Origin: Euglena gracilis
Taxonomy: Eukaryota
DNA length: 64,000 nt
Direction: 5' to 3'
Assembly (NCBI GenBank): GCA_039621445.1
Contig: CP154954.1
Span: 13,806,387-13,870,386 of the forward strand
Part shown: piece by piece, positions 22,949 to 62,886 of the stretch
Position numbering within the stretch: the first letter of the stretch is position 1
Layout of the letters: every line of letters starts with the position of its first letter
Notes under the pieces: generated by a model
Seen by the model: only the letters and a program-made list of their open reading frames with translations
Told to the model about the DNA's origin: nothing
Databases searched by the model: none
Made by a program: the position numbers and the translations under genes

Positions 22949-23716
22949 TGTATGCATGTATGTAAATCTATACATTTGTTTTATGTCCGAATGAAGCATC
23001 CCTGCAACAGTGTGGGTACATACACGGATACATGGATGGGGCGTTGGGTAGGTGTCACATTCAATTGGATTACATGCTGCAGAAACTCAGGTGCTGGGAA
23101 ACACGGTGCCTTGCAATCCAATGTCCCCGAGTGACGGCAGTCAACCGAGGACAAAACAAGACCGACGTTCGTGTCTGGGTGTTGGTGCGTCTGTGTGTGT
23201 TTGTGTGCGTGAGCATGGATGCATATGTTGGTGCACCTCGTAATCAAATGATGCAGTGCAGCCAGTGAAAGATGTAATCTTAGCAGGCAAACCAGTGCTA
23301 CAGATGTGAAGGAGCCAATGCAAGTGCAGTTGAAAGCTGGATTCTGCTTGTGCGCACCGCCCATCCGCTCTGTGTGTGGCTTGTTTTTCCTCTCCTCTAC
23401 TGGTGACACTGCGGGACTTGTAGTTAGTGCGCTACGCTGCTCACGCCGCGGGGCCGAAATTTCCTTTCTGCAAAACTCTTTGCCGCAGCGTTTATGGCAT
23501 TTTCATGGCATTTTTGGCATTTTTTTTTGCCACGGTGGATGTGACAAGGAAACTTTCTGCAACACCGCAACAGTTAACGTGTTTTCCGGTGGTGCCGCCG
23601 AGGGCATAATTTCTGCGTTGTCACGGGCAAGCGTGACATACAGGAGTGCGCCAAACATCGCGTGCAACTAACATCGCGGGGACTTAAACCGAGGTGTCTA
23701 ACTCCGAGGGTACGTC

Positions 23717-24024
23717 TGTGTACCAGGCGTATGCTTCTGTCCCCTTCCGTTGAGGAAGTTAGGATGGAAGCAGATCCTATTAGGATTTCCTAATGGGTGC
23801 CCCTTCTCTCTCCACAGGTGGTATTCTGTTTGTCTTTCCTTTTCTCCGGACCGGACTTGGTTATCCAGTCCGTCCTCCCTGCATTGCTCTGTGCTTTGCT
23901 TCTTGGGAAGTGGGAAAAGGGATTTTACTGTTACTCTGATTTTCAGTTCCCAAGTAGGTGCGCCAAGGCGAAAGCGAAGGCTTTTGGGAATTGGGAATTG
24001 GGAATTGGGAATCAGACGTACACT
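23717..24024 (+). repeat. 5' LTR
   Basis: tgtgtaccaggcgtatg...atcagacgtacact. Matches 39867-40174 except for 2 substitutions (tgGga/tgTga; actCtg/actAtg). Confidence 0.97.
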
Positions 24025-24046
24025 TGGTAGCAGATTTGTTCGATCC
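24025..24046 (+). promoter_or_regulatory. Primer-binding site complementary to initiator tRNA-Met
   Basis: TGGTAGCAGA directly after the LTR is the complement of the ...UCUGCUACCA 3' end of eukaryotic tRNA-iMet. It is followed by TTCGATCC, complementary to the iMet T-arm GGAUCGAA. Confidence 0.9.
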
Positions 24047-24238
24047 TACGCTGACTGGCAGCGGAGGGCCCCTGCACCGTTATTACACGGTCGCAGCGTC
24101 AGCTCCCGGCTTCTAGTCAACGTCTAAGCAGACGAGCAGGCTCCGGAAGGTGCTGTACGGTATTACCCGTTACAGCCCCTCTGGTGCCAGCACAACTGCT
24201 TAGTTTTATGGGTTTTTGCTGTTTTTGTCATCAGAAAG

Positions 24239-26818
24239 ATGCAAAGCACAGGCCCCAACCATCAATTCAACTATGCCTTATTCCAGGCATCATTGCAAGA
24301 CATTGACCAAGAAAATGGGGATTGGAAGCTTTTATGTGAAAGTGCTTCCAGTTCCCACGCCGATGAGGCACAGTTGGTTCAATTGTCACAATTGCAACAT
24401 TTGTCATCATTGACAGTGGTCGGCGATGAGCCTTCCACTTCATTGGCTTCAGAGGCTAATGCGGCCTCTTCCGCACTCACCTTGCCACAACGGGGGTATT
24501 CGCCTCTGTCTGCGGCAATGGTGCAGCTGCGCACACCGGAGAAACCCGTGGTGATTCCGCCACCGGGCTTCTCTGGTGATGGTGGGCTAGAATCCTCGTG
24601 TTTCTTTCAACCACCACCCGCTCTTCCACCGGCAAGCCCTTATAGAGCTTTGCCACCACCACCCGATCTTGGGTGCTATCCCGCACTACCTTGGCAACCG
24701 GAGACTCGCCTAGTGGTACCGGAATTCTCCGGTATGTCCCAACCCATGGATGGCTATGGGAAGGGCACTGGTGAGCTCCTTACCGCTGGGGATGTGGAGG
24801 ATATCGTTGCTCGGCTTCCAGGGGATCACCCCCTTGTGAGGCAGTTCAACCATGTGCAACAATGCGTTGCAGACTGTGCAACCGCACTCAACAAAGTGCT
24901 CCAGTTTGATGAGGACAACCAAAAACATATCTTCACCAAGCTGGAATACTGCTGGAATTACTTGCAGGAAGTTGGCAAATATTGCCAGAGGAATTTCGAA
25001 AGTGCGGGTATTGACCTTGCAAACTTTCGGGAAACCTTTGACAAAATGTGCCAACAACTCCCGCAAAACTTCCGGCAAATTAGTGAATGCATGCATGAAG
25101 CGGAAACGCGGAATGACTCCAAGTTTCTGCACTTGCATGACTCACTACAACAGTTATCGGGACAAATGGAGTCCTGTTCATCCGCGTTGTTGCATTTGCA
25201 ACAACAGTTGCATGCACGAGATTCCTCGTCTGCAACAACACACAGTGGTGGATTTGTGTCTATGGACCATTTCACCACATTGTCCGCAACTTTCCATGAA
25301 TCGCAACACCGCATTATGCAGTTGTGCGATGAAACGGAAAAGTTTCGGCAATTCCAGTCACAAGCAAACGGGAATTTTGCTCCCCACACGTATGTGCGGC
25401 AGTTAGAGGAGCGACTTTCCCGTTTGGAGCAGAAAACCTGCTATTGTGACGCGAATCAGGTTGGATTATCCAATCTGAGCGCGAAAGTAGCGGAAGTAGC
25501 ACAACGGCAGGATTCCCTGCAGTTGCAGTTGCAATCCGACATTGGCGGGGTTAACTCGGCCATTGCGGGTTTGCAACAAAGCTATTCCGCACTTTCCCAC
25601 CGAGTTCCGGACATTAGCGGTATTCAGACTGCTATTGGGGAACTCCAGACCCCGTATGCATCGGTGTCTACCAAAGTAACGGAAATGCAGTATCTACCTG
25701 CAGGTTCCAGTTCTCGGATTACCGAGAACCCTGATTTCAGGGCATTTTATGACAAAATGCTCACTAACAATCAGGAAACCTTGCAAGATTTTTGCAACAG
25801 CCTATTACGGGTTGAGGAATCGGTGAATCGGAATGCCCGATCCACGCAAAGTGAGATTACCAGGTTGGATGAGCGAATTTCCGCGTTTTTGGATAAGCCA
25901 CAACCCGGAAATTTGCCCATGGGTACCACAACCGTGTTGTCGGATAACCCTGCACCGGTTGCACCCACCACCACACCAACCAAGGTGACATCACCTTTGC
26001 AGATTCTCTCAAATGCTGTAAAAGCATTAATGGGACAACTCCAATTATTGGATAAGTCTCACGGGAAACTTGTCCAAGATGTTACCGGAATTTCCGAAAG
26101 GATTCCGCACTTGGATGACTTTTCCCGTTACCGCAAGCGTATTCGCGCTTTGGAGGATGAAGTTGACCGTATTTGCGGCCAACTCCAACTCGTTGAGCAT
26201 TTGGAGCAAAGTGTGCATGACTTGTCTGTGGGTTTGGATAATGTGTCCAACCAACAGCAGGTTTCACACCGCAATTCGGCAGTATGCATTGCCGAAGATG
26301 CGCCAAATGTTCCAGAGTCGCGTTCCCATAACCCGGCTCTGGGTGCACATGCACCACCACCACCCGTGTCCCGAGTGTCACAATCCGCGATTCCGCGAAT
26401 TGTGCCACCATTGGCCTTGTCCACAACCCAAACCCAGTTTTCGGACGAATTTCCCATTACGGGAACCGAATTTGCGGAAAACACGGCGATTCCGCCAAGT
26501 CTCCACCAAGAAATTCGTCATTCCATGCTTGTGCGTGGAATGAGCCAAACCCGACACCGGGAGTGGGTCACATGTTGCATGCGCGACATACCCCCACACC
26601 GGAGAGTCTCCCTATTACGGGTGACCAACAGGGTTTGCGACCGGATTTCCGGTACCAGGATTCACCTTCACCAGAAATTTCGCGATTCGGACAAGAATCC
26701 GGAAAGGATACGCTTGGTGCTCGAGCGTACCCAGGCCCAAAACCGCGGAATACCACCGAGGGTCAACGGGTTTTTCAGAAAGACTTCAAGGGCACCATCG
26801 CAATCGCGAATAAGGTGA
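24239..26818 (+). CDS. gag: Gag N-terminal part: Pro-rich segment and long coiled-coil region
   Basis: 859-codon ORF starting ~200 nt after the PBS, rich in Q/L/E heptads. It overlaps the next ORF (-1 frame). The last ~100 aa are probably out-of-frame run-on. Confidence 0.75.
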   Translation: MQSTGPNHQFNYALFQASLQDIDQENGDWKLLCESASSSHADEAQLVQLSQLQHLSSLTVVGDEPSTSLASEANAASSALTLPQRGYSPLSAAMVQLRTPEKPVVIPPPGFSGDGGLESSCFFQPPPALPPASPYRALPPPPDLGCYPALPWQPETRLVVPEFSGMSQPMDGYGKGTGELLTAGDVEDIVARLPGDHPLVRQFNHVQQCVADCATALNKVLQFDEDNQKHIFTKLEYCWNYLQEVGKYCQRNFESAGIDLANFRETFDKMCQQLPQNFRQISECMHEAETRNDSKFLHLHDSLQQLSGQMESCSSALLHLQQQLHARDSSSATTHSGGFVSMDHFTTLSATFHESQHRIMQLCDETEKFRQFQSQANGNFAPHTYVRQLEERLSRLEQKTCYCDANQVGLSNLSAKVAEVAQRQDSLQLQLQSDIGGVNSAIAGLQQSYSALSHRVPDISGIQTAIGELQTPYASVSTKVTEMQYLPAGSSSRITENPDFRAFYDKMLTNNQETLQDFCNSLLRVEESVNRNARSTQSEITRLDERISAFLDKPQPGNLPMGTTTVLSDNPAPVAPTTTPTKVTSPLQILSNAVKALMGQLQLLDKSHGKLVQDVTGISERIPHLDDFSRYRKRIRALEDEVDRICGQLQLVEHLEQSVHDLSVGLDNVSNQQQVSHRNSAVCIAEDAPNVPESRSHNPALGAHAPPPPVSRVSQSAIPRIVPPLALSTTQTQFSDEFPITGTEFAENTAIPPSLHQEIRHSMLVRGMSQTRHREWVTCCMRDIPPHRRVSLLRVTNRVCDRISGTRIHLHQKFRDSDKNPERIRLVLERTQAQNRGIPPRVNGFFRKTSRAPSQSRIR

Positions 26819-28215
26819 AACCCCAGTGGGACGGTGATCCAACCACATGGAGACAGTTTTTCCGGGACTGGGAGTACTACTGGGCATTGAAAGGGCCAAC
26901 CCACGACACAAACCCGGAGGTGATCAAGATGGAATTCATCGATTGCCTCCCTAGGGATGAGAAGGAGCGCGCGCGACAACTTGTCATTCGCTACCGCGTT
27001 TCCTTTCATGACCTGGTGGAGCAATACGCTTCCACCAGTTCAAGTTTGGTCGCTAGGATTACCCTAGAGACCAAGTGGCGGCAATGCGCCCCACCGGACC
27101 GCAAGTGGAAGTCCATTGACCTTTGGTACGCCAAATGGTTAGGACTTGCCGCTGAAGTGGATGAACTCAGTGGAAAGCAAATGCGCGAACAGTTTGACGC
27201 TGTTCTCATGCATTTCACGCCTAGCCTCATCAAGGATATCCACCGTGAGGAGTTGGCGAGTCATCCAATGACTCTTGACCAACGCTGGAACTACGTTTCC
27301 AAGCAATTGAAGCTATCACAGCTTCTTGGTCAGATTCAATCCGCGTATAACGCACACCCAACCGCTGGATTACCGGCTGGTTCAGTGAACGCGTTGCAAA
27401 AATCACTGGTTTCACCCACTTCACCAACCACGGGATCGAAAACGCGATACCCGCGTTCTTCGGACCAAGCCACGGATAAAGTGTGCTTTTTGTGCAACAA
27501 ATCGGGACATATGTCTCGGGAATGTCCTAATCCTGAAGCGCGTAAGCGTATTCAGAGTCCGCGAGGCTCCACCTCATCACGAGGTTCGGGTTCCTCCGCG
27601 TTTTCACGCCAATCGGGCAATTCACGGTCATCGGGTCCCCGTTCCGGTGGTATTAGCCCCCGGATCCCGTTCCGCGATGAGCGGAAACACGGTACCCCTC
27701 GGGGTAGGTCACCCGGTGCCCCGGCCAAGAAGCGTGATTCTCATCGCGAGACATCGCGATCGCGTTCGCGAAGCGGATCATCTTCTTCGCGATCCTCATC
27801 GGGAAAACCCCGATACACCGGTCATGGTCGACGGGATACCCGGTCACCACGACGGTTTGACGGGAAATCGGGAAACCGATCCCCCCGTTACCCAGAATCG
27901 CGACACAAATCGCGGTGTTCGCTTTGTGGATCGAGTGATCACCACTCATCCAAATGTCCGCGTTCTCGTTCTCCCCGCCCTGGCCAACGTCATCGCGGTA
28001 TGAATCGCGGTGACAAGGGTCACTCCTCCAACCGCCATAAAGTCGGTTTCAAGATATCTTGTTTGGAGGATGACACCCCGGCTTCGGGCAGGGAGGGGGA
28101 TGAGACCACGGATACCGATTTCGACGAGGCCCGCATGGCGGTGCGCACGTTGAAATCCGTTTATACCTCTAAAAGGCCCATAGCCGGCTATTCGGCCGGT
28201 TCGGACCTGGAGTAG
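26563..28215 (+). CDS. gag: Gag C-terminal part: capsid-like domain, two CCHC zinc knuckles, RS-rich nucleocapsid region
   Basis: KPQWDGDPTTWRQFFRDW capsid-like start; CFLCNKSGHMSREC (27484-27525); CSLCGSSDHHSSKC (27916-27957); R/S-rich basic tract. Confidence 0.9.
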   Translation: MGHMLHARHTPTPESLPITGDQQGLRPDFRYQDSPSPEISRFGQESGKDTLGARAYPGPKPRNTTEGQRVFQKDFKGTIAIANKVKPQWDGDPTTWRQFFRDWEYYWALKGPTHDTNPEVIKMEFIDCLPRDEKERARQLVIRYRVSFHDLVEQYASTSSSLVARITLETKWRQCAPPDRKWKSIDLWYAKWLGLAAEVDELSGKQMREQFDAVLMHFTPSLIKDIHREELASHPMTLDQRWNYVSKQLKLSQLLGQIQSAYNAHPTAGLPAGSVNALQKSLVSPTSPTTGSKTRYPRSSDQATDKVCFLCNKSGHMSRECPNPEARKRIQSPRGSTSSRGSGSSAFSRQSGNSRSSGPRSGGISPRIPFRDERKHGTPRGRSPGAPAKKRDSHRETSRSRSRSGSSSSRSSSGKPRYTGHGRRDTRSPRRFDGKSGNRSPRYPESRHKSRCSLCGSSDHHSSKCPRSRSPRPGQRHRGMNRGDKGHSSNRHKVGFKISCLEDDTPASGREGDETTDTDFDEARMAVRTLKSVYTSKRPIAGYSAGSDLE

Positions 28216-28251
28216 GGAAGCCCGAGGTCCGAGGGCACGGACCTCTGGGCT
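28213..28251 (+). promoter_or_regulatory. Candidate gag-pol stop-codon readthrough signal (UAG-G + hairpin)
   Basis: TAG GGA AGCCC-GAGGTCCG-agggca-CGGACCTC-t-GGGCT: a 13-bp GC-rich stem 3 nt after the gag stop. Protease continues in the same frame. Confidence 0.65.
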
Positions 28252-28830
28252 GATGAACAGATGGAGGTAGGACCTGATCAACCCTGCCCCCCCTGCCCAT
28301 CTGCCTTTCTGGTCGGTACCCGGAAAATTTTCGTGTCCACCACCCCCCACTCGAACTTTCCGCTCGGAATGTTGTGCAAAGTAGGAAAGGGTTCATGGGA
28401 AAGCTGGCAAGAAAACGTATTTTCGCCAGACCCTTCACTTTGCTTACCCCCCATGGAACTTTTGGTCCAAGCGGAAATCAAAATCCAAAATTTTTGTGCA
28501 AAAGTCAAAATTCTCATTGACACTGGTTGTCGCATTGCACTACTTTTTCGGTTCGGGTTGATACCAACCCCCCTCTTGGTGAAAGCTAAGAAGCCGATCA
28601 AAATTACGACGGCTGATAACACCCCCATGTGCGGTGGTGACTTGGGATGATTTTTGGACATTGTCCTACCCCTCATCCCCAAGCACCACTCACACCCCCC
28701 CCAACCGCAAAATTTTCCGGATACCTGAGGATATGAATCCGGAATCCATGGTTCTGACGTAATTCTGGGACACACCTTTTTACGTCAGCACCGGCTGGTA
28801 GTGGATTGCCACTCCCACGGTTTGTGCACA
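28216..28830 (+). pseudogene. Retropepsin-type aspartic protease with two in-frame TGA stops
   Basis: KILIDTGC (D at 28519), IKITTADN flap, and DVILGHTFLRQHRLVVDC in the same frame after TGA at 28648 and 28726. Confidence 0.9.
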
Positions 28831-29661
28831 TCACCATTCTCTTCATTGCCCCCCAAACCCTCATCACCTGTGGCGTCAACCGCGATAGCCACCAATTTTT
28901 CCACACTGTTTTCGAAAACTTTTACCCCGTTACCAACCACACCAACCAACGTTTTCTACACCGGGTGTACCGAGAAAGTTCACCCCCTGCCCGTAGACAC
29001 ACCAACTTCCGTTCCCCATGAGGCAGGGCAAGCGAGTAGCGGTACCCCCCTCGTTTCACTGGGTTACAAGACGAAAGCCCAAAGGCCTGAAGTGATCACG
29101 ATGTCGAGTAGTCGCCCAGCTGCATCAATACCCCGTTTTCCACCAGATGTATCGCTTTCAGATACATCTGTACACCCCCCAGCAGCTTCAAAAGCGCATC
29201 CGAACTTTTACACACACCCTCACCAGACCAACATGCGCGACCAGGACCACTACTCCGAAACTTCCTTCCAATGTGTGCACTGTAGGAGAATTTCTGCCCA
29301 GCCAGATTTCGATTGTGGATGTCTAGTCCAAACACCAACACTATTCCCGATTTCGTGTAACCATACACTTGGTTGCGGTTCGCAATGCGCGACCGTACAT
29401 CAAGTGCTCCAACAACGAGGTATTGCCTTGTTGTTTGGGACCGCGAAATCCGTGTCACACACCTCCCCCAATTCCATCTGGCATGATATGGACTGGGTAT
29501 ACACCCATCCAACCCATCAACCCTCGGGAATGCCCCTAGGGAGTGTGGATGACACACCCTTGACCTATGTTTACGGATCCCTGAATTGCGTTACCGCTCT
29601 TCAGCCCGCGAACCAGGTCGACACCTACGCGATGCGCGTATGGAACGCATTCAATTTTGGT

Positions 29662-30066
29662 CAATACCGTATTTTGGAGGAATGGTTCTCCAAAATCGCG
29701 GGTTTGGCTGATACCTTCGATTTGTCGTTGGAAATTGATGCGTTTTCATCAAAAGCGCATGCGCGCTTGTCGCAATATTGGTCGCGACATACCAACGCAT
29801 TTCTGAAATTTTGGGGTGATACCGTGCTATGGATGCACCCTCCCCCAAAACGTGTCCCGGATGTGGTGGATAAAATCCTCCGCGATGAAGCGCGAGGAGC
29901 TCTCCTCATACCCGTCAATCCGAACGCGGATTGGTTTCACCAACTATCCTATGTGTGTTTCCATTGGTGGGATTTCCCCGCTGATGTACCACTATTTGAG
30001 GATTTTTGTGGTATATTATTACCACCGGTTAAAGAAATCATTTTTCGCGTTTGTTTCTTTGACGCA
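29662..30066 (+). CDS. Dam/DIRS-type DNA N6-adenine methyltransferase-like domain within Pol
   Basis: LEIDAFSSKAHARLSQYWS-(3)-NAFLKFWGDTVLWMHPPPKRVPDVVDKILRDEARGALLIPVNPNADWF follows the motif order of DIRS MT domains as I know them: xDxFAS, DAF..W, xPP, V.KI, P.WP...WF. Confidence 0.8.
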
Positions 30067-30249
30067 TTCGGAATATCCGATGTGCGTGTGCCAAGATACC
30101 TTGGTACGGATGGGGATGCCACACCCTCAACTCAGATTTCTGCGGTCATTGAGAGTGCGGACCAACACCCCAAGTCTGCTGACTATTGTTCGCGAATTAC
30201 TCGTGAATTCCATGGTGTACTGGATAATCCAGTTTACGCCTGCGACATC

Positions 30250-31210
30250 GACCCCGCGATTCGCCGTCCGTTCGGTGTTTGCAAAATCGAGCTCAAGGAT
30301 GGCGCTAAACCCATGCACTGGAAAATTTTCCGTTGTTCGGGTGAACACGAACAAGCTCTCAACGAGATGATTGAGAAGCTCATCCAGCGGAAGTGGATTA
30401 TCCCTTCCAAGAGCGAGTGGACATCACAAGCTTTTGTGGTGCCCAAACCCGCTGACCAGTCTGGTCAGAAAAAGTGGAGACTAGTGCTGGATTACCGGTA
30501 TCTGAACTCCCAAACCAAGGATGACCCCTTCCCGTTACCGCTGATCGAGGATTTGATCACCAAACAATCGGATAACCGGTTGTGGTCAATCTTTGATCTG
30601 GAAGACGGCTTCCATCAGATGCATTTGCATCCTGATTCGCAACCGTACACGGCATTCGTGACATCCAAGGGTGTGTACCAATGGATGGTACTCCCCATGG
30701 GTGTTAAGAATGGCCCAGCCATGTTTCAACGCATGATCCAGTGGGTTTTGCGCGATTTACCGTTTGCTCTGGTGTACATCGATGATGTAATGGTGGGAAC
30801 CCAACCGCCATCCGCGAAATCGGGCGAGGATATCCTCGAACCGCATTATCGCGATGTGCGGGCGGTATTATCCGCGTTCAAAAAGCATTTGCTTTTTGTG
30901 AAGGGTTCCAAAATGCACCTGTTTCGCAAAATTATTAAGTTTAGCGGGCATATCCTGAGCAACGGGCAGCGTAAAGCCGCACCCAGTAAGATGGAGGCCA
31001 TTAAGAAATGGACTCCTGAGGTCATTAAGATCTTAACGCATTTAAAGGGATTTTTGGGATTAGCCCAATATTACGCGATTTACATGAAAGATTTCGCGAA
31101 AATCGCGGTACCCCTAACCCGACAACTCAAAAATCGGACACCCGATAACGCAAAAGTCATTTGGGATGTCCAAATGCGCGAGGCCTTGAATAAACTCAAG
31201 AAACTTACTC
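30250..31210 (+). CDS. pol: Reverse transcriptase (3' part of ORF 28801-31302)
   Basis: WRLVLDYRYLNSQT, PFPLPLIEDL, FDLEDGFHQM, TAFVT, LPMGVKNGPAMFQR, YIDD (30775-30786), LKGFLGLAQYY. Ty3/Gypsy-type. Confidence 0.97.
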
Positions 31211-31219
31211 CTCGAGAAC

Positions 31220-32317: not shown

Positions 32318-33324
32318 GATTACGTTTTTGTTGTCGTCTGTCGGCTGAGTGGGTACATAGTAGCCATTTCATGCCGGAAAGCAGGGTTGACAGCCCAAAT
32401 TTTGGCATCCATATTCCTGGAGAAATGTATCTGCTTAATGGGTTTACCGAACGAAATCGTGACTGATCAAGATCACTTGATCTCTTCGCGGTTTTTCACA
32501 ACTTTGTGCGGTTTACTCGGCATTGAGCAGCATTTTTCCATTATATACCGCCCGAAAGGCAATGGTAGAGCCGAGGCAGCCGTGAAATCCGTTGTCAATA
32601 TGCTTCGCCTTTCACTGGCTGACTCGGGTAAGAATTGGTTATCCGTTCTTCATTGGTGTTTATTTTACATCAATACCTTGCCAGGGTTGGTATTACCACG
32701 CTCACCGTACAAAATTGTTTTCGGACGAGACCCTCCGGCCATAGGGGATATCCCCTCGGAGAGACCCGCCCGAAGTAGCGTCAGCTGTGAAACGTGGTTT
32801 GCAGAAGTGGAATTACTCCGCTCTGCAGTCCAATCACGTATCACAGAAATTCATTTCAACAAACGGAAATCGTTTTTACAGAACTTCAACACACCTGTGT
32901 ATAGTCCAGGTGACCGCGTGTGGGTACGGAATAACCGCACCCGCATGCAATCTTCCAAGCTAGATCCTCTTTGGCTCGGCCATGCAAAATTTTGGAGAGG
33001 TTAGGTAGTAGCGGGCGATATAAAGTTGCCTTGCCCAACGGGATTGACGACGTCCATATGGACGACTTCAAACCGTACCTAAGCCCCCCAGACGGAAAAG
33101 CTATCCCCTGCCTATATTTCAAGCCCCGTTCCAGATTACCTGAAACGGACGACTTTGTGGTCGATAAGATAATAGACCACAAGGTCGACAGGGGTGTGCA
33201 CTACTGGAAAGTTCGCTGGAAAGGGTATGGGCCAGAGGAGGACACTTGGGAGCCAGCATCCAGTTTTGTTGGATATTACCAGCAGGATTGGAAGCTGTGG
33301 AACAGGCGCAATAACATAACATAA
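32318..33324 (+). pseudogene. pol: Integrase DDE core, GPY/F-like region and C-terminal chromodomain (frameshift at ~32980)
   Basis: IVTDQD and GNGRAEAAVK catalytic motifs; PGDRVWV...[13 protein letters not shown]; chromodomain [34 protein letters not shown] from 33154. Confidence 0.95.
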
Positions 33325-33537
33325 ACATAAACACTTTCTGAAACGATTTCGTTTTGGAGAATGTGTGTGTTTTATGTGAATGTTTCGCGTTTATACCCCC
33401 CCCTGCACTTCTTTATTTCTCTACCTTTCTCGCAGAGTTTTTGATTAAGATAGAAGCCTACCTTTTTCAGTGCACCAGCACTCAAAGCGACAGACAACAA
33501 GGTTACCCTTCGTTGTCGTCGTCGTTCGGGTAGCATC

Positions 33538-36500
33538 ATGCTGCCTGGGCGCGGACCTGGACCAGGTCCACCATGGCCGCAGCCTTCTGGCGCGCCATAC
33601 CCCCAGTACCCTCAGTATGCTGAGGCCCCGATTCCGGGTGCCCCACATGCTGAGAGGGTTTCAGCCCCGGTATTCGCCGCGGCTACCAGCAGCCGGTCCG
33701 CATATGCGGTACCAGATCCATCTGCCGTCCAGCAGCCGGCACCTCAGCCACCAGCGCAGCGCAGATCGCGCCTGCCCCCATATGCGGGAGAGATGATCTT
33801 CCGCACTACGGAGACGTTGGAGCGGGCGATGCGTATGTGCGCACACCCCCCAACGGAGCCCTTTATGCAAGCCCTTTGGGATGCATACTGTGCTCAGTTG
33901 TTGGTGGTAGCCAACACCCCTGTGGCTCAGTGGTGTCCCTGTGGTCAACCCCTGATGACGGGGAGACGGTATTTCTCGTCGGCATCCGATTCCGGATTCG
34001 AGCCTGGCGAGACCATGGACCTGGGCGTGTATGTGCCGCCCATGCTGCAAACGCAGACGCCGGTGGGATCCCACACCGTGCATATGCGTGAGCACACGCC
34101 CCCACCGGTAGGTGAGGCTGTGCATGTCCTACCTGGGATGACGAGAATTATTGCTCGCCCGCCCTCGCCGCAGCGCATGCCGCCGCGCGAGCCGCCAGCG
34201 GAGCACTTTGTCTCGCGGTACGCGACGCACGCGGATTACCCGCGCGGCGCACGCGTGCTCCCAGCCGGACAGTCGGACGTGCCCCCTGAGGCATACGTCC
34301 AACACATATTCATGCACTGGATGCCACAAGCATCATCGGTCGCCCCTGTCCCTGGCGTTGAGCCACGGCGGCAGGCGGAGCCCATAATGGTGGAGGATGA
34401 ACCTCCCCACAGTGAGGCAGCTCGACCGCCCAGTGCAGCTCCTGTCCAGACTGGGGATATCCCCCGTCGGCAGGAGACTCCCTACTATCACATGGCACCT
34501 CCGGGAACCGAGCAGGATGAGCTTGCTCGGCACTTCCTGCAGGAGCCAGTATTCGCGTCTGAAGAGCACCGGACGAGGTATTACTCCTCTCTGGCTGCCC
34601 TTCAGGGCCGTGGATACACCCCATACCATCCGTACCAGCCGCAGCTGCGGGTGGCAACCCCGGTATTACCCGGTGAGCCCCCGGCAGGTGTGGCAGTATT
34701 ACCTGCCACCCTGAAGCGCGACCGGACTACGGAGAACCTTACCCCACAGCCCAGGCGACCCAGCCCACGGGACGCGGAAGGCGGTGTGGCGATGCAGGTG
34801 GAAGCCAGCCAGGATACCCCGGCTGGACGACCACCGGCAGAGGCACAGGTGGCGATGAGCCGTCCTGTTGCCGCAATGCCACCGCCGATCCCTCCGGTAT
34901 GGAAGGAGCCACGACCCCCCGCGTCGAAGCCAAGCCCACGCCAGACTCCTCATCATCGCCCAGCCACGCCATCACCGCGACGTGCAGCGGAGCGGCTAGA
35001 TCCCTCCCCAGAGATGGAATGGGAAGGAACCGAACCGACTCCTGCGGCACCGAGCGCCCGACCTTCTGGTATTCGCCATACGGGAAAGGATGCCGGCAAG
35101 GCCGAAGGCAAAGGCAAGGGAGAAGGCAAAGGCGTGGCCGGCAAAGGGAAGGGTGAGGGTAAAGGTAAGGGAACAGCACGTGAGGAAGAAGAAGAACCAG
35201 CAGAAGTCCTCTCGGACTTTGAGCATATGCTCAGGTTCAAGGAGGAGCTGGAGGATGAAGGCTGGCGAATGCAGCATGATTACCATGTTGCAGGAAACCG
35301 CCCCGTCACCCCTCCACAAGCAGTCATCGATGTGGTATTACGCCACACCGAGAACCGAGTCAGACTATTCCATTACGGAATAGATCTGTACGCCTTCGAA
35401 GGTGAAGGTGACAGACCCTTGCTGGATGCACAGCCAGGTTTCTGGGAGCTCTGGTTTTGGCTGGGATACCCCTGCCAGAATTGGGGTCTCTTCAGCGATT
35501 CCACTGGTCGCAGTTACCTGCACCAGTTGGGTTTTCGGGACCAGCGTGTGTTGGCCCGAAGGCTGAAGGCAGTCTTCGACTGTATTCATACAGTCGGACC
35601 CCTCGGCGTGCAGTGGAAATTCTACCCACTACACCCCGACATCGAACACCTGATCGAGGTGTTGTGGTGCAACAACCTCCAGGTGTGGCTGGTGAGCCAT
35701 TACGGCTCCACCTTCCGCGTTAAGCGTGTTTCCCTGGCTTACCCGCAGAGGTATGACCTCTGCTGTAAGTACTGCCGGCAGGAATTTCCTGTCGACTTCT
35801 GGGGATTCGGCGTGCGCGGAAGTCCTCCACCGCCTCGGGATAACCCGGGACTGGAGATGGGACGCCGCATGCTTATGCATGTGTGCCGCGACGCCCCGGA
35901 TGTCCAGGGCAAAAGTCGCCGCGTCCACAAGCAGCGTATTTTTATGCTGCAGCAGTTCTGGTGGCGAGCCTGGACTACCTATGTCATGGAGGTGTATATA
36001 CATCTCCGTGACCCCCAGGACGATAGGCCTGGAATGGAAAGCCTGCCACCGGATTACGGTGACGCCATCGAGGGTCCTCGTCGTCGGATTCTCGGCCACC
36101 TGCGCCCCAACTGGCACCTGGCTGATATCAGCCTGGAGGAACATTTGCGGCGGCAGTTTGGCGGTACCCTCGACCGGGAGGTATTCCTTCCGCTGATGTG
36201 TCACCGGAAGGCCATCCTCGAACAGCGTATGCTGATTCTGGCATGCGTTCAGGAGTTCGAGAAGGGCTTTTTCGAGGTCTGGGAAGACACGCGTTACCGC
36301 GACTTCCTGGGCCCGAACAGGCCTGCCAACGCCTGGGTGCAGCCATCATGGCCGCCACCCTGGCCCAACAGCGCCAGCAGCAGTACGCTGGCCTTTTACA
36401 GGCTGGCGGACGCTCAGGGATGCCGATGGCACCCGACGATCCTCGTTCGCCCGAGGATCTGCGGGCCTTCATCGCCCCGGAGGATGAACCTCTGGCGCGA

Positions 36501-36702
36501 AGGAGACGTGAGGCGTCAGTCGCTTCCACCACCGCGATTCCGCGGCGGGAGGAACGCGACCGCAGCCCATCCGTCACCATCCTGGAGGCAGCGCCGCCGT
36601 CTCCGACAGGAACGGCTGTATCATTTGTCTCTGCCCCGCGAGCGGCAGGGGAACGATCGGTTTCCCCGGCCCCCGCGGTGGCTCCCGTCTGTCCACCCGT
36701 AG
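33538..36702 (+). CDS. Extra sense ORF, part A (unknown function; Pro-rich, GKG repeats, Cys/His-containing globular region)
   Basis: 1054-codon ATG-initiated ORF between pol and the 3' LTR. It probably joins part B through a 1-nt indel near 36360. Confidence 0.8.
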   Translation: MLPGRGPGPGPPWPQPSGAPYPQYPQYAEAPIPGAPHAERVSAPVFAAATSSRSAYAVPDPSAVQQPAPQPPAQRRSRLPPYAGEMIFRTTETLERAMRMCAHPPTEPFMQALWDAYCAQLLVVANTPVAQWCPCGQPLMTGRRYFSSASDSGFEPGETMDLGVYVPPMLQTQTPVGSHTVHMREHTPPPVGEAVHVLPGMTRIIARPPSPQRMPPREPPAEHFVSRYATHADYPRGARVLPAGQSDVPPEAYVQHIFMHWMPQASSVAPVPGVEPRRQAEPIMVEDEPPHSEAARPPSAAPVQTGDIPRRQETPYYHMAPPGTEQDELARHFLQEPVFASEEHRTRYYSSLAALQGRGYTPYHPYQPQLRVATPVLPGEPPAGVAVLPATLKRDRTTENLTPQPRRPSPRDAEGGVAMQVEASQDTPAGRPPAEAQVAMSRPVAAMPPPIPPVWKEPRPPASKPSPRQTPHHRPATPSPRRAAERLDPSPEMEWEGTEPTPAAPSARPSGIRHTGKDAGKAEGKGKGEGKGVAGKGKGEGKGKGTAREEEEEPAEVLSDFEHMLRFKEELEDEGWRMQHDYHVAGNRPVTPPQAVIDVVLRHTENRVRLFHYGIDLYAFEGEGDRPLLDAQPGFWELWFWLGYPCQNWGLFSDSTGRSYLHQLGFRDQRVLARRLKAVFDCIHTVGPLGVQWKFYPLHPDIEHLIEVLWCNNLQVWLVSHYGSTFRVKRVSLAYPQRYDLCCKYCRQEFPVDFWGFGVRGSPPPPRDNPGLEMGRRMLMHVCRDAPDVQGKSRRVHKQRIFMLQQFWWRAWTTYVMEVYIHLRDPQDDRPGMESLPPDYGDAIEGPRRRILGHLRPNWHLADISLEEHLRRQFGGTLDREVFLPLMCHRKAILEQRMLILACVQEFEKGFFEVWEDTRYRDFLGPNRPANAWVQPSWPPPWPNSASSSTLAFYRLADAQGCRWHPTILVRPRICGPSSPRRMNLWREGDVRRQSLPPPRFRGGRNATAAHPSPSWRQRRRLRQERLYHLSLPRERQGNDRFPRPPRWLPSVHP

Positions 36703-39050
36703 GTGGAGACCAGGAACTTCCTGAGGAGGAAGGTGAGAACGTGGAGGATATCCTCTACGCTGCTCTGCATGCTCCGGCACAGCCTAGGCCAGACGGAGCA
36801 CCCGCAGGGGATATACCTGTGGCTGCTACGCCTGCTCCAATGGCTGGGCCTCTAGCCGAGGTGACTGGTATGGTCGTCGAGGATATCCTCGAAGAACCTA
36901 CCAGCCCCGCAGTATGCACCTCATTAGGAGGCCGTGTGCTCGGCGCCGTAGTCACCGGCATTACTGCCGTGGCTGCTGCACTAGCGCCACGAGGTGGAGG
37001 CGTAGCATCAAGCTCCGCCGCTGAGGTCGTGGAGACGCCGGATGTCGGTGTCCCCGCACCCCCATCTCCGGCAGCAGTGCAACCACCTTCAGGGGATGAA
37101 CCCCAGCCGACAGAGCCATCTGTCGCACCAGCTACAGCGGAGGATCAACCTCCCTTCGCACCTGCGCCAGCGGTTGTGGAACATCAACCTCCTAGACCGG
37201 ATGTCGAAATGGAAGTGGAGGAGATACCCCCACGACCACCGACACCGCGCAGGGTCCCTGCCGTCCCGAGGACAATGGCAGAGTTTCTGGGAGCGCCAGC
37301 GCCTGTGGAAGCACCGATTCCGATGACGACCACAGTGCCACGCCTCGTCGGACAGGATGAACCTGCTCGGCGACGGCCGGCTGAACAACCCCAGGAACGT
37401 GTGCCGACCCCTCGGAGCGTCATGCGCGACCCAGCGGTCAGGATGCCCGCTTCGCCCAGACGGCAAACGTCTACTCCGGCACCATCGGCTCCTGATACCA
37501 GGAGTAAGCCGCAGGCGTCGCCTCCTGATTCCGGGAGTGCGAAGCCGAAAGGAGGCAAACCGGGTGCTGCACCCTGTAAGCCCCCTGCCAAAGGCAGTGA
37601 TGGAAAACCACCACCGAAAGGTGGCGCTGGATGTCAGACTGGCGGACAGCCAAAAGGCCCTACGACAATGCACGACTATTCGGCCGTTGCATCGTCCGGG
37701 TACGGCCAGAGCAAACCGAAAGGTAAGGCTCGTGGTCGACAGGCCCAATCTTCCACCGGATCGACGGATGAGGAGCAGGATGAACCTGCTTCTCCTCCCG
37801 TGTCTGCGGATGCCCAGCTCTGGACTCAGGATATCCTGACCAGACTAGGCACCGTGGAAGAGAGGACGAAGAAACTGGCTGCTATTAGGCACCAGAAAGG
37901 GTCACTGAATCAATGGATTCAGCCCCTCTTCGTCCGAGGAGAACCTTTCCATTATGTCCCGGAACATACCTGGACATTCTGGAATAGGCGCTCACCAAGA
38001 GTACTGGCACAGTACTTTGGTGAGGACTGCGTGTTGGATTTCCAGCACGGCACGTCCTTTGCCTGGACGTGCACCGTGTGCCACCATGTGCGGCACAACC
38101 AACCGCTTGTGCATGTGTGCAAGCGGCAGGTGCAATCCTCGTGGTTCCATCACAGGGCATATGTGCCGAACTGTGTGGCGCTCGTATGTGGCGAGTGCCT
38201 GAACGCGTGGAAGCACAGCTTGAACTACTCCTACAGTGAGAATGCTCACGACAGGGATATCCATGCCTTGTGCATCAACTGTATAGGAGCCAAGTTCGTG
38301 CAGACTGCTGATGGAGCAGTCACCACCATTGTCCCACAGCACTGGGAGACACTGGAGAAGTGGAAGAAGGAGTACAAGCAGGTGGAAGGCCGCCTGAAGC
38401 ACTCCGACTTCCGAAAGGTAGAAAGCTACCGCCACACGGGAATGGCCCGTGAGTTCCAGATCGACGCTGGGGCAATGCGCCTCGCCGTCGAGGAACACGC
38501 CAAGGTAATAATGCCTTACCTCTGGTCTGATGGCGACTGGGAGACACAGGTTTACCCCCTGTTCTCCAAGCGTCAGCATGGCGGATACGCCTTGCCACTG
38601 TGGCCTCCTGAAGAACACGATTTGGTGGACTTCAGAGGTTGGTTGGCGGCTGTATTACGGCCCCATACCGCAAGAGCTCGGACAGCGAGGTGGATGTATG
38701 ACATCAACTTCAAGCAGACCCCGGGGATGCCCCCGCAGGTGCCTGCGAATCATCCCCGGATGAATTACATCATCTGGCCGGTGATGCTGCCTAGAATTTT
38801 CTGGGAGCAGCTCCAACGGTATCTTCAGCATCATGCTGAACGTACCAGGGAGAAGCTACCGGATAATTGGATCAAGGACTGGGAGACCCCTTCCTTTGAT
38901 GTCAACGATCCGGAGCTCAACACCATTCGGAGTGAATCAGCTCCGCCGCGTTCTCCACGCCAACTGGAGTTGGTTGAGGACCCATTAGGGGACCCCCAAC
39001 ACGACTACTGGCGTGAGGTGCGCGAACGCCCAGCCGATAAAGGCAGGTGA
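36198..39050 (+). CDS. Extra sense ORF, part B (Pro/Ala-rich linker + Cys/His/Trp-rich C-terminal domain)
   Basis: 950-codon ORF in the -1 frame relative to part A, with CTVC, HVC, CGEC and CINC motifs. Confidence 0.8.
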   Translation: MSPEGHPRTAYADSGMRSGVREGLFRGLGRHALPRLPGPEQACQRLGAAIMAATLAQQRQQQYAGLLQAGGRSGMPMAPDDPRSPEDLRAFIAPEDEPLARRRREASVASTTAIPRREERDRSPSVTILEAAPPSPTGTAVSFVSAPRAAGERSVSPAPAVAPVCPPVGGDQELPEEEGENVEDILYAALHAPAQPRPDGAPAGDIPVAATPAPMAGPLAEVTGMVVEDILEEPTSPAVCTSLGGRVLGAVVTGITAVAAALAPRGGGVASSSAAEVVETPDVGVPAPPSPAAVQPPSGDEPQPTEPSVAPATAEDQPPFAPAPAVVEHQPPRPDVEMEVEEIPPRPPTPRRVPAVPRTMAEFLGAPAPVEAPIPMTTTVPRLVGQDEPARRRPAEQPQERVPTPRSVMRDPAVRMPASPRRQTSTPAPSAPDTRSKPQASPPDSGSAKPKGGKPGAAPCKPPAKGSDGKPPPKGGAGCQTGGQPKGPTTMHDYSAVASSGYGQSKPKGKARGRQAQSSTGSTDEEQDEPASPPVSADAQLWTQDILTRLGTVEERTKKLAAIRHQKGSLNQWIQPLFVRGEPFHYVPEHTWTFWNRRSPRVLAQYFGEDCVLDFQHGTSFAWTCTVCHHVRHNQPLVHVCKRQVQSSWFHHRAYVPNCVALVCGECLNAWKHSLNYSYSENAHDRDIHALCINCIGAKFVQTADGAVTTIVPQHWETLEKWKKEYKQVEGRLKHSDFRKVESYRHTGMAREFQIDAGAMRLAVEEHAKVIMPYLWSDGDWETQVYPLFSKRQHGGYALPLWPPEEHDLVDFRGWLAAVLRPHTARARTARWMYDINFKQTPGMPPQVPANHPRMNYIIWPVMLPRIFWEQLQRYLQHHAERTREKLPDNWIKDWETPSFDVNDPELNTIRSESAPPRSPRQLELVEDPLGDPQHDYWREVRERPADKGR

Positions 39051-39858
39051 GGTGTCTGTGAGCGCCAATGCGGCGTTCAGCACCCTCGTCAGGTATTCGC
39101 CTGACACCCTGTTTGGGTATTCGCCCGAACAACCCCTTCGAAGACCCTTTGCGGTATTCGCCGCTAGTAAGTTCCCACCGGGATGCTGCCATGTGCAGGA
39201 TTCCGTGTGCATGCATGCACACCCCTCTCCCCTCTCCCCTCTCGCGGGCGTGCGACACGCAGCGCACAGGGCCGACGGCCTCTTTTCATTTCCCTTTCTT
39301 TTCTTTTCGGCCGTTTGAGGCCTTAAGGCTGCCAGACAGCACAACTTTTTGGCCTAAGCCAACCCCCCACTCCTCTCTACTTTCCCCCCGGGGCAAATGC
39401 TGTCGCCGGCAGTTGGTTTTGTAGAGTAGGATTTCCTTTTGCGTAGTCAGGTTTGACTGGCCATGCGCCCTGCCCAGGTTTGACTGGTCAGCCCCCTCCT
39501 TCCACACCCTCCCCATGGGTTTTCCTGGAATGCCCATGGACCCAACCCCAAGTGCCTTGGGCACACCCAAACTGGGTGGATGGGTTTGCTTGGCAAGGAA
39601 ACCTGCCAGCCCCATTTTCCCAAGTGGGCTATAATATACTATATACCCATAAGCCACCGCCGAATATGTGAAACCATTTTGCGCGTTTTGGGCTTTTTGG
39701 GTCCCCTCCTTTCCGCCCCCCCCCTTTGAGTGGACCCCTGTGCGACGGAAAGGGCCCCTGTGGATGCGCCAGGGTGCACCTCCCTCAGACCAGGTCTGTG
39801 TCCGAAATCCCTGTGGCCAGAATGCCTGGTCCAAAGGGGAAATCAGGCATAGCCCTGT

Positions 39859-39866
39859 GAGGGGGA
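39859..39866 (+). promoter_or_regulatory. Polypurine tract
   Basis: GAGGGGGA immediately 5' of the 3' LTR. Confidence 0.75.
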
Positions 39867-40174
39867 TGTGTACCAGGCGTATGCTTCTGTCCCCTTCCGT
39901 TGAGGAAGTTAGGATGGAAGCAGATCCTATTAGGATTTCCTAATGGGTGCCCCTTCTCTCTCCACAGGTGGTATTCTGTTTGTCTTTCCTTTTCTCCGGA
40001 CCGGACTTGGTTATCCAGTCCGTCCTCCCTGCATTGCTCTGTGCTTTGCTTCTTGGGAAGTGTGAAAAGGGATTTTACTGTTACTATGATTTTCAGTTCC
40101 CAAGTAGGTGCGCCAAGGCGAAAGCGAAGGCTTTTGGGAATTGGGAATTGGGAATTGGGAATCAGACGTACACT
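39867..40174 (+). repeat. 3' LTR
   Basis: 308-bp direct repeat of 23717-24024, followed by ACGTC, which also precedes the 5' LTR. Confidence 0.97.
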
Positions 40175-43100: not shown

Positions 43101-43337
43101 GACCCCTTTCCTGGTTTAAAAGCCCAGATGATGCACCAACTGGCTTGGGTGGTGTTTGACTTTTGAAGCTTATGGTGATGCTACTGTCCTCCAAATCATT
43201 GCATTGCATTGCATTTGTGCCAAACTTTTGCATTTGCACCTGCACTTGCAAAATATCGTCGAGATAAATGAAAACAGGGTGTTTAGCCCAAAACAAGCCC
43301 CTTCCATCTGGAAATCTCTGTCCCCCAATTTCCACAT

Positions 43338-44745: not shown

Positions 44746-45066
44746 TACCGTGCCCCCCCCCCAGTTAGTCACCCCCTTGGAGGGGAATTTGGCCAAGGGT
44801 GACTAATATGGGGGGGGGTGACTAACTCGGGGGGGGGGGTCATTTTAGGCCCAAATTTTGCCCCCTGCCCCAATTCTTGGGGGTTTCAAGGTTGTTTTGG
44901 GCATTCTAGGGCACATTTAATGGATGGCAACCATCAAGAAAATTCTGATGGCCAAATTCAGTGTTTTTTTAAGAAAAATATTTCCCTTCAAAAAAAATTT
45001 TGGGCCTAGGGCCCAAGGGTGACTAATAGGGGGGGGGGGGGTGACTAACTGGGGGGGGGCATGGTA
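44746..45066. mobile_element. TA-flanked MITE (second copy 46863-47181)
   Basis: TA-ccgtgccccccccc-agttagtcacccc ... ggggtgactaact-ggggggggg-catgg-TA. Confidence 0.75.
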
Positions 45067-62885: not shown

Positions 62886-62886
62886 T

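Follow-up and report, generated by a model that had tools for sequence, protein, structure and literature searches.

A Euglena gracilis Ty3/gypsy retrotransposon with a chromodomain, a Dam-like domain and a long third gene

Introduction

Chromoviruses are Ty3/gypsy elements that carry a chromodomain at the C-terminus of integrase. DIRS1-type retrotransposons, which use a tyrosine recombinase, have a phage-Dam-like domain of unproven activity in pol. Two systems outside these groups are also relevant here: METTL14-type pseudo-methyltransferases, in which EPPL replaces the motif DPPW, and gammaretrovirus-type gag-pol read-through, in which a stable RNA structure lies within a few bases of an in-frame UAG.

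The methyltransferase domain of DIRS1-type elements is described in PMC3266345 and PMC2685390. A preprint of May 2026 (bioRxiv 10.64898/2026.05.21.726589) reports Ty3/gypsy elements with both Dam and chromodomains, including elements from E. gracilis. These ‘DAM-LTRs’ were defined by a Dam domain in a non-DIRS LTR element at hmmsearch E≤1e-5, and almost all of the Dam domains carry Asn-Pro-Pro followed by an aromatic residue. Long extra ORFs are described in LTR retrotransposons such as the plant Retand and Ogre and the elements of bdelloid rotifers (PMC11963269, PMC5408684, PMC6431247).

Here we analyze one element in a window of 64,000 nucleotides, that is, the whole stretch of DNA under study. 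The element is probably a full-length, recent and defective copy of a very abundant E. gracilis family of chromodomain-bearing, Ty3/gypsy ‘DAM-LTR’ retrotransposons, with a gag of 1,325 codons, a pol that contains a Dam-like domain and is likely to be expressed by read-through, and a third gene (ORF3) of about 1,837 codons. The original prediction, made from the letters of the window, had called this architecture unusual and had supposed that typical Ty3 chromoviruses lack a methyltransferase. The supposition is outdated, as Ty3/gypsy elements with Dam and chromodomains are already described in the preprint; the new features here are a third gene, a degenerate motif in the Dam-like domain and a gag of unusual size. 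The main text of the preprint describes neither such an ORF, nor the gag size, nor the order PR-Dam-RT.

Results and Discussion

Structure of the element

The features of the element are collected in Table 1. An LTR pair in direct orientation, together with a short target-site duplication, is the structure expected of a Ty3/gypsy LTR element. Contigs of one form in the DNA run X1 pass straight from 23710 to 40176 and omit the whole element, apparently representing an empty site in a copy of the repeated flank. The window gave no match in Rfam and tRNA scans, and none of the eight flanking ORFs matches a Pfam family at E≤0.01.

Table 1. Coordinates of the features of the element within the 64,000-nucleotide window
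Feature	Positions	Strand	Description
Whole element	23717-40174	+	LTR retrotransposon, 16,458 bp
Left target-site duplication ACGTC	23712-23716	+	5 bases identical to 40175-40179
5' LTR	23717-24024	+	308 nt, TGTGTAC...GTACACT; 2 mismatches against 3' LTR
PBS-like TGGTAGCAGATT	24025-24036	+	abuts 5' LTR; called by sequence only
gag part A	24239-26553	+	N-terminal extension of ~770 aa; coiled-coil-type Pfam matches, all sub-threshold
gag part B	26554-28212	+	capsid-like region (PF00098, 24.0 bits, cutoff 20.8) and two CCHC zinc knuckles
CCHC zinc knuckles of gag	27484-27525 and 27916-27957	+	within part B
gag-pol junction	28213-28251	+	UAG 28213-28215, in frame with PR; 13-bp hairpin 28219-28251
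Protease (PR)	28216-28800	+	D-T-G at 28519; in-frame TGA at 28648 and 28726
CxxC-x10-CxC motif	29272-29322	+	between PR and Dam-like domain; conserved in window, P0001 and P0002
Dam-like domain	29578-30078	+	Pfam match 29701-29940; HPPP at 29836-29847 (VLWMHPPP)
Reverse transcriptase (RT)	30442-30954	+	PF00078, E 1.6e-26; YIDD at 30775
RT-RNase H frameshift	31186-31210	+	variant segment one base longer than most copies; contig loose ends at 31185 and 31203
RNase H (RH)	31238-31585	+	PF17917, E 1.9e-24
Integrase (IN)	32018-32979	+	H2C2 zinc domain 32018-32200 (PF17921), core 32321-32554 (PF00665), C-terminal part
Chromodomain	33148-33267	+	PF00385, E 3e-10, 40.3 bits, cutoff 25.1; match 33154-33264
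ORF3, whole	33538-39050	+	5.5 kb, one protein of ~1,837 aa; split here by frameshift at 36431
ORF3, first part	33538-36431	+	Pro-rich N-terminus, then folded domain 1 (~35356-35890)
ORF3, second part	36432-39050	+	Pro/Ala-rich linker, then Cys/His-rich domain 2 (~38007-38800)
Polypurine-tract-like GAGGGGGA	39859-39866	+	abuts 3' LTR; called as for the PBS
3' LTR	39867-40174	+	308 nt; mate of 5' LTR
Right target-site duplication ACGTC	40175-40179	+	repeats left 5 bases

The insertion is recent, and the copy is full-length but defective. Most of what the original prediction said of its layout is borne out: a young 16.46-kb element whose LTRs differ at 2 of 308 positions, an in-frame UAG between gag and pol, a chromodomain scoring above its cutoff, the order PR-MTase-RT-RH-IN-chromodomain (the MTase being a Dam-like domain below cutoffs) and some 5.5 kb of extra ORF, albeit split by a frameshift. 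The predicted Gag of about 1300 aa stands, at 1,325 codons, only when reading continues across the 1-nt frameshift at 26553; in the window copy gag is divided between ORFs of 896 and 627 aa that overlap, and an extra T after 26553 in other copies fuses parts A and B.

Past the UAG of gag, the hairpin has a minimum free energy of -42 kcal/mol over 88 nt (z = -3.2), and 1 of 200 shuffled sequences folds equally well. Position 28213 is absent among the 40 differences listed, of 1,098, between the copies and the window. We consider that pol is probably made by read-through of the UAG, with the hairpin following the stop. The arrangement resembles the gammaretrovirus type in its in-frame UAG and in the stable RNA structure a few bases downstream, but the structure here is a simple predicted hairpin.

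The domains of pol follow the order PR, CxxC..CxC motif, Dam-like domain, RT, RNase H, integrase and chromodomain. The integrase core scores 29.6 bits against PF00665, under the cutoff of 32.6; the chromodomain lies directly after a GP-type integrase C-terminal module, and the pol stop codon is at 33322-33324. The 18 matches to the RT-containing ORF from outside the family all have Ty3/gypsy-type domain sets: RT, RNase H and integrase-zinc families are present in every one, and a chromodomain in 5. We assign the element to the chromoviruses by its domain order and its chromodomain. Compared in this way, by domain order, it shares with them the succession PR-RT-RH-IN-chromodomain and the position of the chromodomain right after the GP-type integrase C-terminus, whereas it is about twice the usual length and has in addition the Dam-like insert, the 1,325-codon gag and the third gene. 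With DIRS1-type elements it shares a phage-Dam-like domain in pol whose activity is unproven, but it has LTRs, a target-site duplication and a DDE integrase where those elements have a tyrosine recombinase; its seven ORFs match no recombinase family at E≤0.1.

Lesions of the window copy

The window copy contains four frameshifts (at 26553 in gag, at 31186-31210 and 32979 in pol, and at 36431 in ORF3) and three premature in-frame stops in pol (TGA 28648, TGA 28726 and TAG 32315-32317). Given these stops and frameshifts, it is unable to make pol. P0001 is continuous across the RT-RNase H frameshift region and has Y at the integrase TAG, the protease TGA positions are C and W in P0002, and in other copies a further C follows 32979.

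Three of the frameshifts (26553, 32979 and 36431) are common to most genomic copies. At these sites the intact state accounts for 15-42% of the DNA depth and the shorter states for 58-85%, in two independent DNA runs, from which we conclude that the shorter states are real and common. In the RNA contigs of X15 and X17, by comparison, the intact state holds all of the depth at the three sites, although X15 is taken to be RNA by guess, and RNA libraries can contain DNA, so that such contigs do not prove transcription.

The depth of the shorter states also speaks against a reading in which assembly errors or recoding signals account for the stops and frameshifts and the window copy is intact and autonomous; we consider this most improbable. 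It is true that two of the three 1-nt deficits sit in runs of C, that TGA read as W would connect PR into the next ORF, and that P0002 has W at one of the TGA positions; but it has C at the other, and this, like the Y of P0001 at TAG 32315, fits point mutations. Reading TGA as W was tried and rejected, since PR alone is opened and no other ORF gains sensibly. We prefer to regard the window copy as defective and, because its lesions are shared by many copies, as probably copied in trans by the proteins of intact relatives.

The Dam-like domain

The Dam-like domain of the window is 65% identical to that of P0001 and 40% identical to that of P0002, and the same Dam family is the top match for both of these proteins. 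All three match PF05869, with E-values of 2.4e-4 (window), 7.8e-4 and 4.1e-5 that are all below cutoff (21.2 bits against 28.1 for the window). All three also match PHROG 111 (window E 5.1e-6), and two of the three match TIGR01712 weakly (window E 0.032). As judged from these profiles, the homology to phage Dam methylases is real: three libraries agree on it, though below their curated cutoffs. A PDB profile search returned nothing meaningful, and the AF2 model, at pLDDT 34.8, does not confirm the fold.

Activity is a separate question. The motif is HPPP in the window, HPPL in P0001 and NPPL in P0002, in place of the NPP plus aromatic residue of the preprint's DAM-LTRs, and this substitution renders methylase activity doubtful. 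Neither an intact motif nor an above-cutoff score, as expected of an active N6-adenine methyltransferase, is found in the domain. The suggestion in the original prediction that the element could mark its DNA is thereby weakened.

Nevertheless, one may suppose that the domain is an active N6-adenine methyltransferase, and that 6mA on the element's own DNA or cDNA keeps chromatin permissive. This is the general hypothesis of bioRxiv 10.64898/2026.05.21.726589, whose authors find 6mA methylation in a raised proportion of the DAM-LTR insertions of E. gracilis, and it would accord with the agreement of three libraries on phage Dam homology and with the conservation of the domain among relatives. 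Set against it are the motifs just described and the preprint's own observation that eukaryotic Dam domains do not raise 6mA in dam-deficient E. coli. In addition, the Pfam E-value of 2.4e-4 lies short of the preprint's screen at E≤1e-5, so this lineage may be missing from its set of E. gracilis DAM-LTRs. We consider an active enzyme unlikely; a non-catalytic binding or scaffold module is the likelier role, to judge by the motif. A parallel, offered as an analogy only and from a different family, would be the METTL14 type, in which selection has likewise maintained a methyltransferase fold whose xPPx motif is degenerate. That a domain should be conserved while its canonical catalytic motif is lost bears on whether retrotransposon Dam domains methylate DNA at all.

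Abundance of the family

Contigs at ≥90% identity placed on a 20-kb stretch around the element number 131,870 in X1 and 117,106 in X2. Their summed depth, which is not a copy number, is 0.79-1.49 million in the gag and pol bins (24001-33338) and 0.60-0.81 million in ORF3, as against 52-73 for perfectly matching flank contigs; the flanks are themselves repeated. The family is very abundant in E. gracilis. That this species is the host follows from a named transcript, P0021 (EukProt EP00667_Euglena_gracilis EG_transcript_25142), a 230-aa fragment 98% identical to ORF3, which agrees with the prediction of a euglenid element. LTR elements constitute between a fifth and a third of the 2.37-Gb E. 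gracilis genome (PMC11252322), and the family may form a major part of this LTR content.

One contig of X15 departs from the element sequence after 33380.

The third gene

The depth of ORF3 is about 60-70% of that of pol, and so some family members may be without ORF3 or may diverge faster there. This shortfall, the GC content of ORF3 (0.60-0.62, compared with about 0.50 for gag and pol) and the preprint's caution that nesting of insertions and errors of assembly affect elements of E. gracilis could together suggest that the 3' region of 5.5 kb is foreign, having come from a nested element, from a host gene captured once or from chimeric assembly. The remaining evidence makes this very unlikely. 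There is no second repeat pair of ≥60 nt within 22000-42000 and no inverted repeat of ≥80 nt inside the element; gag, pol and ORF3 all lie on one strand; and in both DNA runs, which come from different studies, the depth of ORF3 is less than 2-fold off that of pol. An RNA contig of X17 (2,402 nt, from 32869 to 35278) links the integrase and chromodomain with ORF3 at about 96% identity, another covers 37522-39697, and a deletion form with its joint from 31059 to 33466 retains ORF3. ORF3 is thus an integral gene of the family rather than a one-off capture, in support of the original prediction, which had inferred a retrotransposon lineage.

A single conserved gene, ORF3 encodes two folded domains that are themselves conserved, with disordered linkers between them; its halves are joined in other copies by one more C after 36431. 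Domain 1 aligns with residues 675-842 of P0037, a protein of 2,294 aa, at 28% identity (pairwise E 4e-12), and P0032, the cluster representative of P0037, matches domain 2. The second part has 16 relatives at E≤0.001. Environmental relatives of ORF3 are 27-39% identical to it, and one is collinear across both folded domains. Domain 1 has no relatives among the proteins of 595-1,894 aa or of 238-758 aa, its best E in a PDB sequence search is 0.11, and the Atlas offers no usable match.

The second part matches no Pfam or PHROG family. Domain 2, modelled at pLDDT 62.3, reaches a best Atlas score of 0.82 (lead level 0.9), toward RING/PHD-like clusters; Foldseek finds no match at E≤0.001 in PDB (best 1.1) or BFVD (best 0.41), and a PDB profile search is empty. 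The two domains are unrelated to one another (best E 1.3), and two metagenome scans and one viral scan yielded no loci of ORF3 relatives. By its Cys/His pattern, the C-terminal domain probably binds zinc. The product would be an accessory protein, and besides P0021 it matches only unnamed environmental proteins.

A broader reading, which we hold tentatively and as somewhat short of probable, is that ORF3 founds a conserved and so far undescribed family of accessory genes in protist retroelements, with two folded domains of which the second is a Cys/His zinc-binding one (motifs AQYFG..CTxCH..HxC..NCxAxxCxxC..CxNC and PGMPPQ..ANHP..IWP), kept through a massive expansion that maybe amounts to several percent of the E. 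gracilis genome, while the Dam-like domain is now a pseudo-enzyme. If so, the element would engage host chromatin by readers and scaffolds, and not by writing 6mA.

Proposed replication and relation to other elements

The element would replicate by the ordinary LTR-retrotransposon cycle and integrate with a 5-bp duplication. By analogy with other chromoviruses, its chromodomain probably serves to tether integrase to methylated histone H3; the Dam-like domain, without the catalytic Asn and the aromatic residue, may act as a binding or scaffold module; the third gene would supply its accessory protein; and the window copy would be mobilized by intact relatives. The element extends the Dam-carrying retrotransposons in three respects, namely by a Dam-like domain that stays conserved after losing the canonical catalytic motif, by a 1,837-codon third gene without known family or fold and by the wide amplification of defective copies. 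The third gene is a target for the study of accessory functions that help a retroelement thrive amid heavy 5mC and promoter 6mA.

The DAM-LTRs of bioRxiv 10.64898/2026.05.21.726589 are the closest described elements, being likewise of Ty3/gypsy type in E. gracilis, with a Dam-like domain within pol and a chromodomain. The EpiLTRs that the same preprint describes from E. gracilis and Cymbomonas also combine a chromodomain, a Dam-like domain and extra coding capacity. Unlike them, the present element has no cytosine methyltransferase: its seven ORFs yield no DNMT match at E≤0.1, no cytosine DNA methyltransferase family occurs among the relatives of ORF3, and the extra gene is of an unnamed family. 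Likened by layout and not by sequence, the element also resembles Retand, Ogre and the bdelloid rotifer elements in its large size and in having a long stretch of coding sequence downstream of pol, before the 3' LTR.

The element and its coding content

The copy in the window is real, well bounded, young and dead, and it represents a very abundant E. gracilis family of Dam-like, chromovirus-type elements, the class being read from the domain order and the chromodomain. Between 22000 and 42000 there is only one pair of long direct repeats. ACGTC flanks both LTRs on their outer side, and the total size is 16,458 bp; alignment thus upholds the LTR pair (2 differences in 308 nt) and the 16.46-kb size of the original prediction. 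In X1, one of two DNA runs from two studies (X1 and X2), a contig form runs straight from 23710 to 40176 with the entire element absent, which fits an unoccupied copy of a repeated flank. The left flank (22000-22666) is itself a very abundant repeat, with a summed contig depth of 1.18-1.31 million in X1 and X2, level with the element, so that the insertion sits within other repeats.

Features of the element in window coordinates
Feature	Position	Strand	Length	Basis
5' LTR	23717-24024		308 nt	pairwise alignment, 2 mismatches vs 3' LTR
Primer-binding-site-like sequence, TGGTAGCAGATT	directly 3' of 5' LTR			sequence only
gag, two frames in present copy	24128-26818 and 26332-28215	+		ORF call
Protease	D-T-G at 28519; TGA interruptions at 28648 and 28726	+		motif, frame reading
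ORF3, two overlapping frames in present copy	33454-36702 and 36126-39050	+		ORF call
Polypurine-tract-like run, GAGGGGGA	directly 5' of 3' LTR			sequence only
3' LTR	39867-40174		308 nt	pairwise alignment, 2 mismatches vs 5' LTR

Read in the standard code, the element has seven long frames on its plus strand. The second gag frame has two CCHC knuckles (PF00098). The next frame, downstream of the protease, encodes reverse transcriptase (RT; PF00078, E = 1.6e-26), preceded by a CxxC-x10-CxC motif and a weak match to PF05869 (Dam). A frameshift near 31200 then leads to RNase H, the integrase zinc domain, a TAG at 32315 and the integrase core; 3' of the core lies a second pol frameshift, near 32980, and next the chromodomain (PF00385, E = 3e-10, above cutoff). 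The order of Pfam and motif matches is the one predicted (protease, methyltransferase, RT, RNase H, integrase, chromodomain), the methyltransferase-like match being weak, and the predicted in-frame UAG between gag and pol is found as a TAG at 28213, in frame with the protease.

A hairpin of 13 bp at 28219-28251 starts three bases past this UAG. The 88-nt stretch at the UAG has a minimum free energy of -42 kcal/mol (z = -3.2); of 200 shuffles, 1 was equally stable. The called ORF of P0002, which like P0001 is a relative carrying the Dam-like domain, starts at the equivalent point, and this weakly suggests a conserved gag-pol boundary. Programmed read-through of the UAG would be the likeliest mode of gag-pol expression.

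Lesions and defective copies

At the two protease TGA sites P0002 reads C and W, and at the integrase TAG site P0001 reads Y; P0001 is continuous at the RT/RNase H junction, unlike the present copy. Translation of TGA as Trp was also tried, and is rejected.

Other copies in X1 and X2 have one additional base after each of positions 26553, 32979 and 36431. The first makes gag one frame of 1,325 codons, the second joins integrase to chromodomain in one frame, and the third makes ORF3 one frame of 1,837 codons. The Gag region of ~1300 aa and the extra ORF of ~5.5 kb that had been predicted do exist in copies with restored frames; both are split in the present copy. The intact state accounts for 42% (X1) and 29% (X2) of depth at 26553, for 15% and 19% at 32979, and for 28% and 42% at 36431. 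Since the shorter states dominate in two DNA runs, the deficits are real and common to many copies; they are neither assembly errors nor private to the present copy. The nearly identical LTRs of so heavily broken a copy are explained by the copying of a large defective subfamily, presumably by proteins acting in trans.

Derivatives of the family with internal deletions are also present: both DNA runs contain contigs joined across 25984-29229 (3,244 nt skipped) and from 31059 to 33466 (2,406 nt skipped). The derivative with the 31059/33466 joint is without RNase H, integrase and chromodomain, and it keeps ORF3.

A third gene

Several results indicate that ORF3, the extra frame 3' of pol, belongs to the element. 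In X1 and X2 its depth differs from that of pol less than twofold. Contigs treated as RNA come from X17, a leaf-litter metatranscriptome, and X15, a run that is only guessed to be RNA and comes from a differently coded organism. These contigs (500-2,400 nt) match gag, pol and ORF3 at ~95-99% identity and are all in intact frame states, which hold 100% of depth at the three sites. One X17 contig (2,402 nt, ~96% identity) spans 32869-35278 and bridges integrase/chromodomain and ORF3, and an X15 contig spans 37522-39697. Internal repeats marking a nested element were looked for within the element, and none were found. Against membership, ORF3 depth is below pol depth, and one X15 contig departs from the element sequence past 33380. 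A one-off capture of the extra ORF would, by the original prediction, have refuted it; the depth, the bridging X17 contig and the deletion form that keeps ORF3 speak against such a capture. The GC content of ORF3 is 0.60-0.62 vs ~0.50 in gag and pol.

Domain 2 (the C-terminal 396 aa of ORF3) served as query for a library-wide HMMER search, which gave 16 proteins with E <= 0.001; for 11 of these, E was <= 1e-10. One relative, P0021, is 98% identical to the query and bears the source name EP00667_Euglena_gracilis, EG_transcript_25142; part of ORF3 is therefore present in a transcriptome. The other 15 are environmental, encoded on ENA or JGI contigs, with 27-39% identity over fragments. Motifs common to the relatives are AQYFG..F..D, CTxCH, HxC, NCxAxxCxxC, CxNC and PGMPPQ..ANHP..IWP.

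P0037 (2,294 aa), encoded on a 9,271-nt contig, is a member of the cluster represented by P0032, a domain 2 match, and it aligns with domain 1, the upstream domain of ORF3, at 28% identity (pairwise E = 4e-12). Its layout is that of ORF3: a Pro-rich N-terminus, domain 1, a Pro/Ala/Lys-rich linker and domain 2. Because P0037 matches domain 1 and the P0032 cluster matches domain 2, in the same order, we take ORF3 to be one conserved gene.

Neither ORF3 frame matched Pfam or PHROG, and in a scan of eight relatives no Pfam match passed its cutoff. For domain 2, AlphaFold gave a model of moderate confidence (pLDDT 62.3, pTM 0.62; 74-89 in the Cys-rich part), with which Foldseek found nothing in PDB or BFVD at E <= 0.001. 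Atlas leads for domain 2 are weak and RING/PHD-like (0.82). Searches with domain 1 among proteins of 595-1,894 aa and of 238-758 aa, in PDB sequences (best E = 0.11) and in Atlas gave no usable match beyond P0037. We infer that the product of ORF3 is a zinc-binding accessory protein.

A Dam-like domain with a degenerate motif

PF05869 is the sole non-RT family matched in the Dam-like stretch. It matches the window, P0001 and P0002 (E = 2.4e-4, 7.8e-4 and 4.1e-5, all under the 28.1-bit cutoff), as does PHROG 111, DNA methyltransferase (E = 5.1e-6, 3.9e-5 and 9.5e-8); TIGR01712 weakly matches two of the three. The domain is 65% identical to that of P0001 and 40% to that of P0002, and the adjacent linkers scarcely align. 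Since the library matches recur in relatives, and since the domain aligns where the linkers scarcely do, sequence comparison indicates that the Dam-like homology is real and the domain under constraint.

Nearly all Dam domains are reported to have Asn-Pro-Pro in the pocket, usually followed by an aromatic residue (bioRxiv 10.64898/2026.05.21.726589). The pocket motif is HPPP in the element, HPPL in P0001 and NPPL in P0002. Because both key positions are lost, and the loss is kept across divergent relatives, the motif in our reading points to a domain that is non-catalytic or altered in role. The structure model of the domain (pLDDT 34.8) was unusable.

Past the protease and ahead of the Dam-like domain lies the CxxC-x10-CxC motif (29272-29322), which the window, P0001 and P0002 all keep and which no Pfam family spans. 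It may form a small zinc-binding module working with the Dam-like domain.

Comparison with described elements

The central novelty of the original prediction, a Ty3-type element combining a chromodomain with a methyltransferase, is no longer new, since Ty3/gypsy elements with Dam domains, many of them also with chromodomains, are reported in a preprint of May 2026 (bioRxiv 10.64898/2026.05.21.726589). The same preprint describes a Euglena group of Dam-carrying elements and a subset that also has a cytosine methyltransferase; in contrast to that subset, the present element has no DNMT in a Pfam scan of its seven ORFs. The preprint screened for Dam by hmmsearch at E <= 1e-5, a threshold of which this divergent Dam-like domain might fall short. 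The words 'accessory', 'additional ORF' and 'protease' are absent from its main text. Literature searches gave no other account of E. gracilis Ty3/gypsy elements, and those on extra ORFs in LTR elements gave general papers only. New relative to the described kind are a third gene that is conserved and 1,837 codons long, a Dam motif that has degenerated, a gag of 1,325 codons and defective copies that have spread.

Abundance

Part of the stretch occurs in 20 of 24 listed runs, and at least half of its words in 14. On 22000-41999, X1 has 131,870 contigs at >=90% identity and X2 has 117,106. In these runs, contig depths sum to 0.79-1.49 million in the gag/pol bins (24001-33338) and to 0.60-0.81 million for ORF3, as against 52-73 for perfectly matching flank contigs; such sums do not give a copy number, and the flanks too are repetitive. 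Were these flank contigs single-copy, the ratio of element to flank depth would have an order of magnitude of 10^4. A very large family is plausible, because the published E. gracilis assembly has a reported size of 2.37 Gb, of which LTR elements make up 22-33% (PMC11252322).

Other features of the window

The flank ORFs at 1504-2808, 4336-5112, 40559-41359, 58351-59130, 59553-60833 and 60677-61489 matched no Pfam family at E <= 0.01. Blocks of 130-300 nt (families D6, D8, D10-D12, D17 and D19) recur in 42745-47446 at offsets of ~2.1 and ~2.7 kb with 95-99% identity, which points to tandem duplication of segments in this region. G-rich arrays of ~10-nt period, with GGTATGGGGG-like units, lie at 43347-44031, 45172-45496, 47297-47686 and 48735-49034, and a tandem array of 8-nt period (62761-64000; ~100 or more units) reaches the window end. 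A dispersed repeat of ~900 nt occurs at 10547-11454 and 50095-51065, in direct orientation, 88-98% identical and ~39.6 kb apart. Finally, an 83-nt inverted repeat (6312-6394 and 8781-8863), 96% complementary and with 2,386 nt between its arms, may mark the two ends of a DNA transposon as its terminal inverted repeats.
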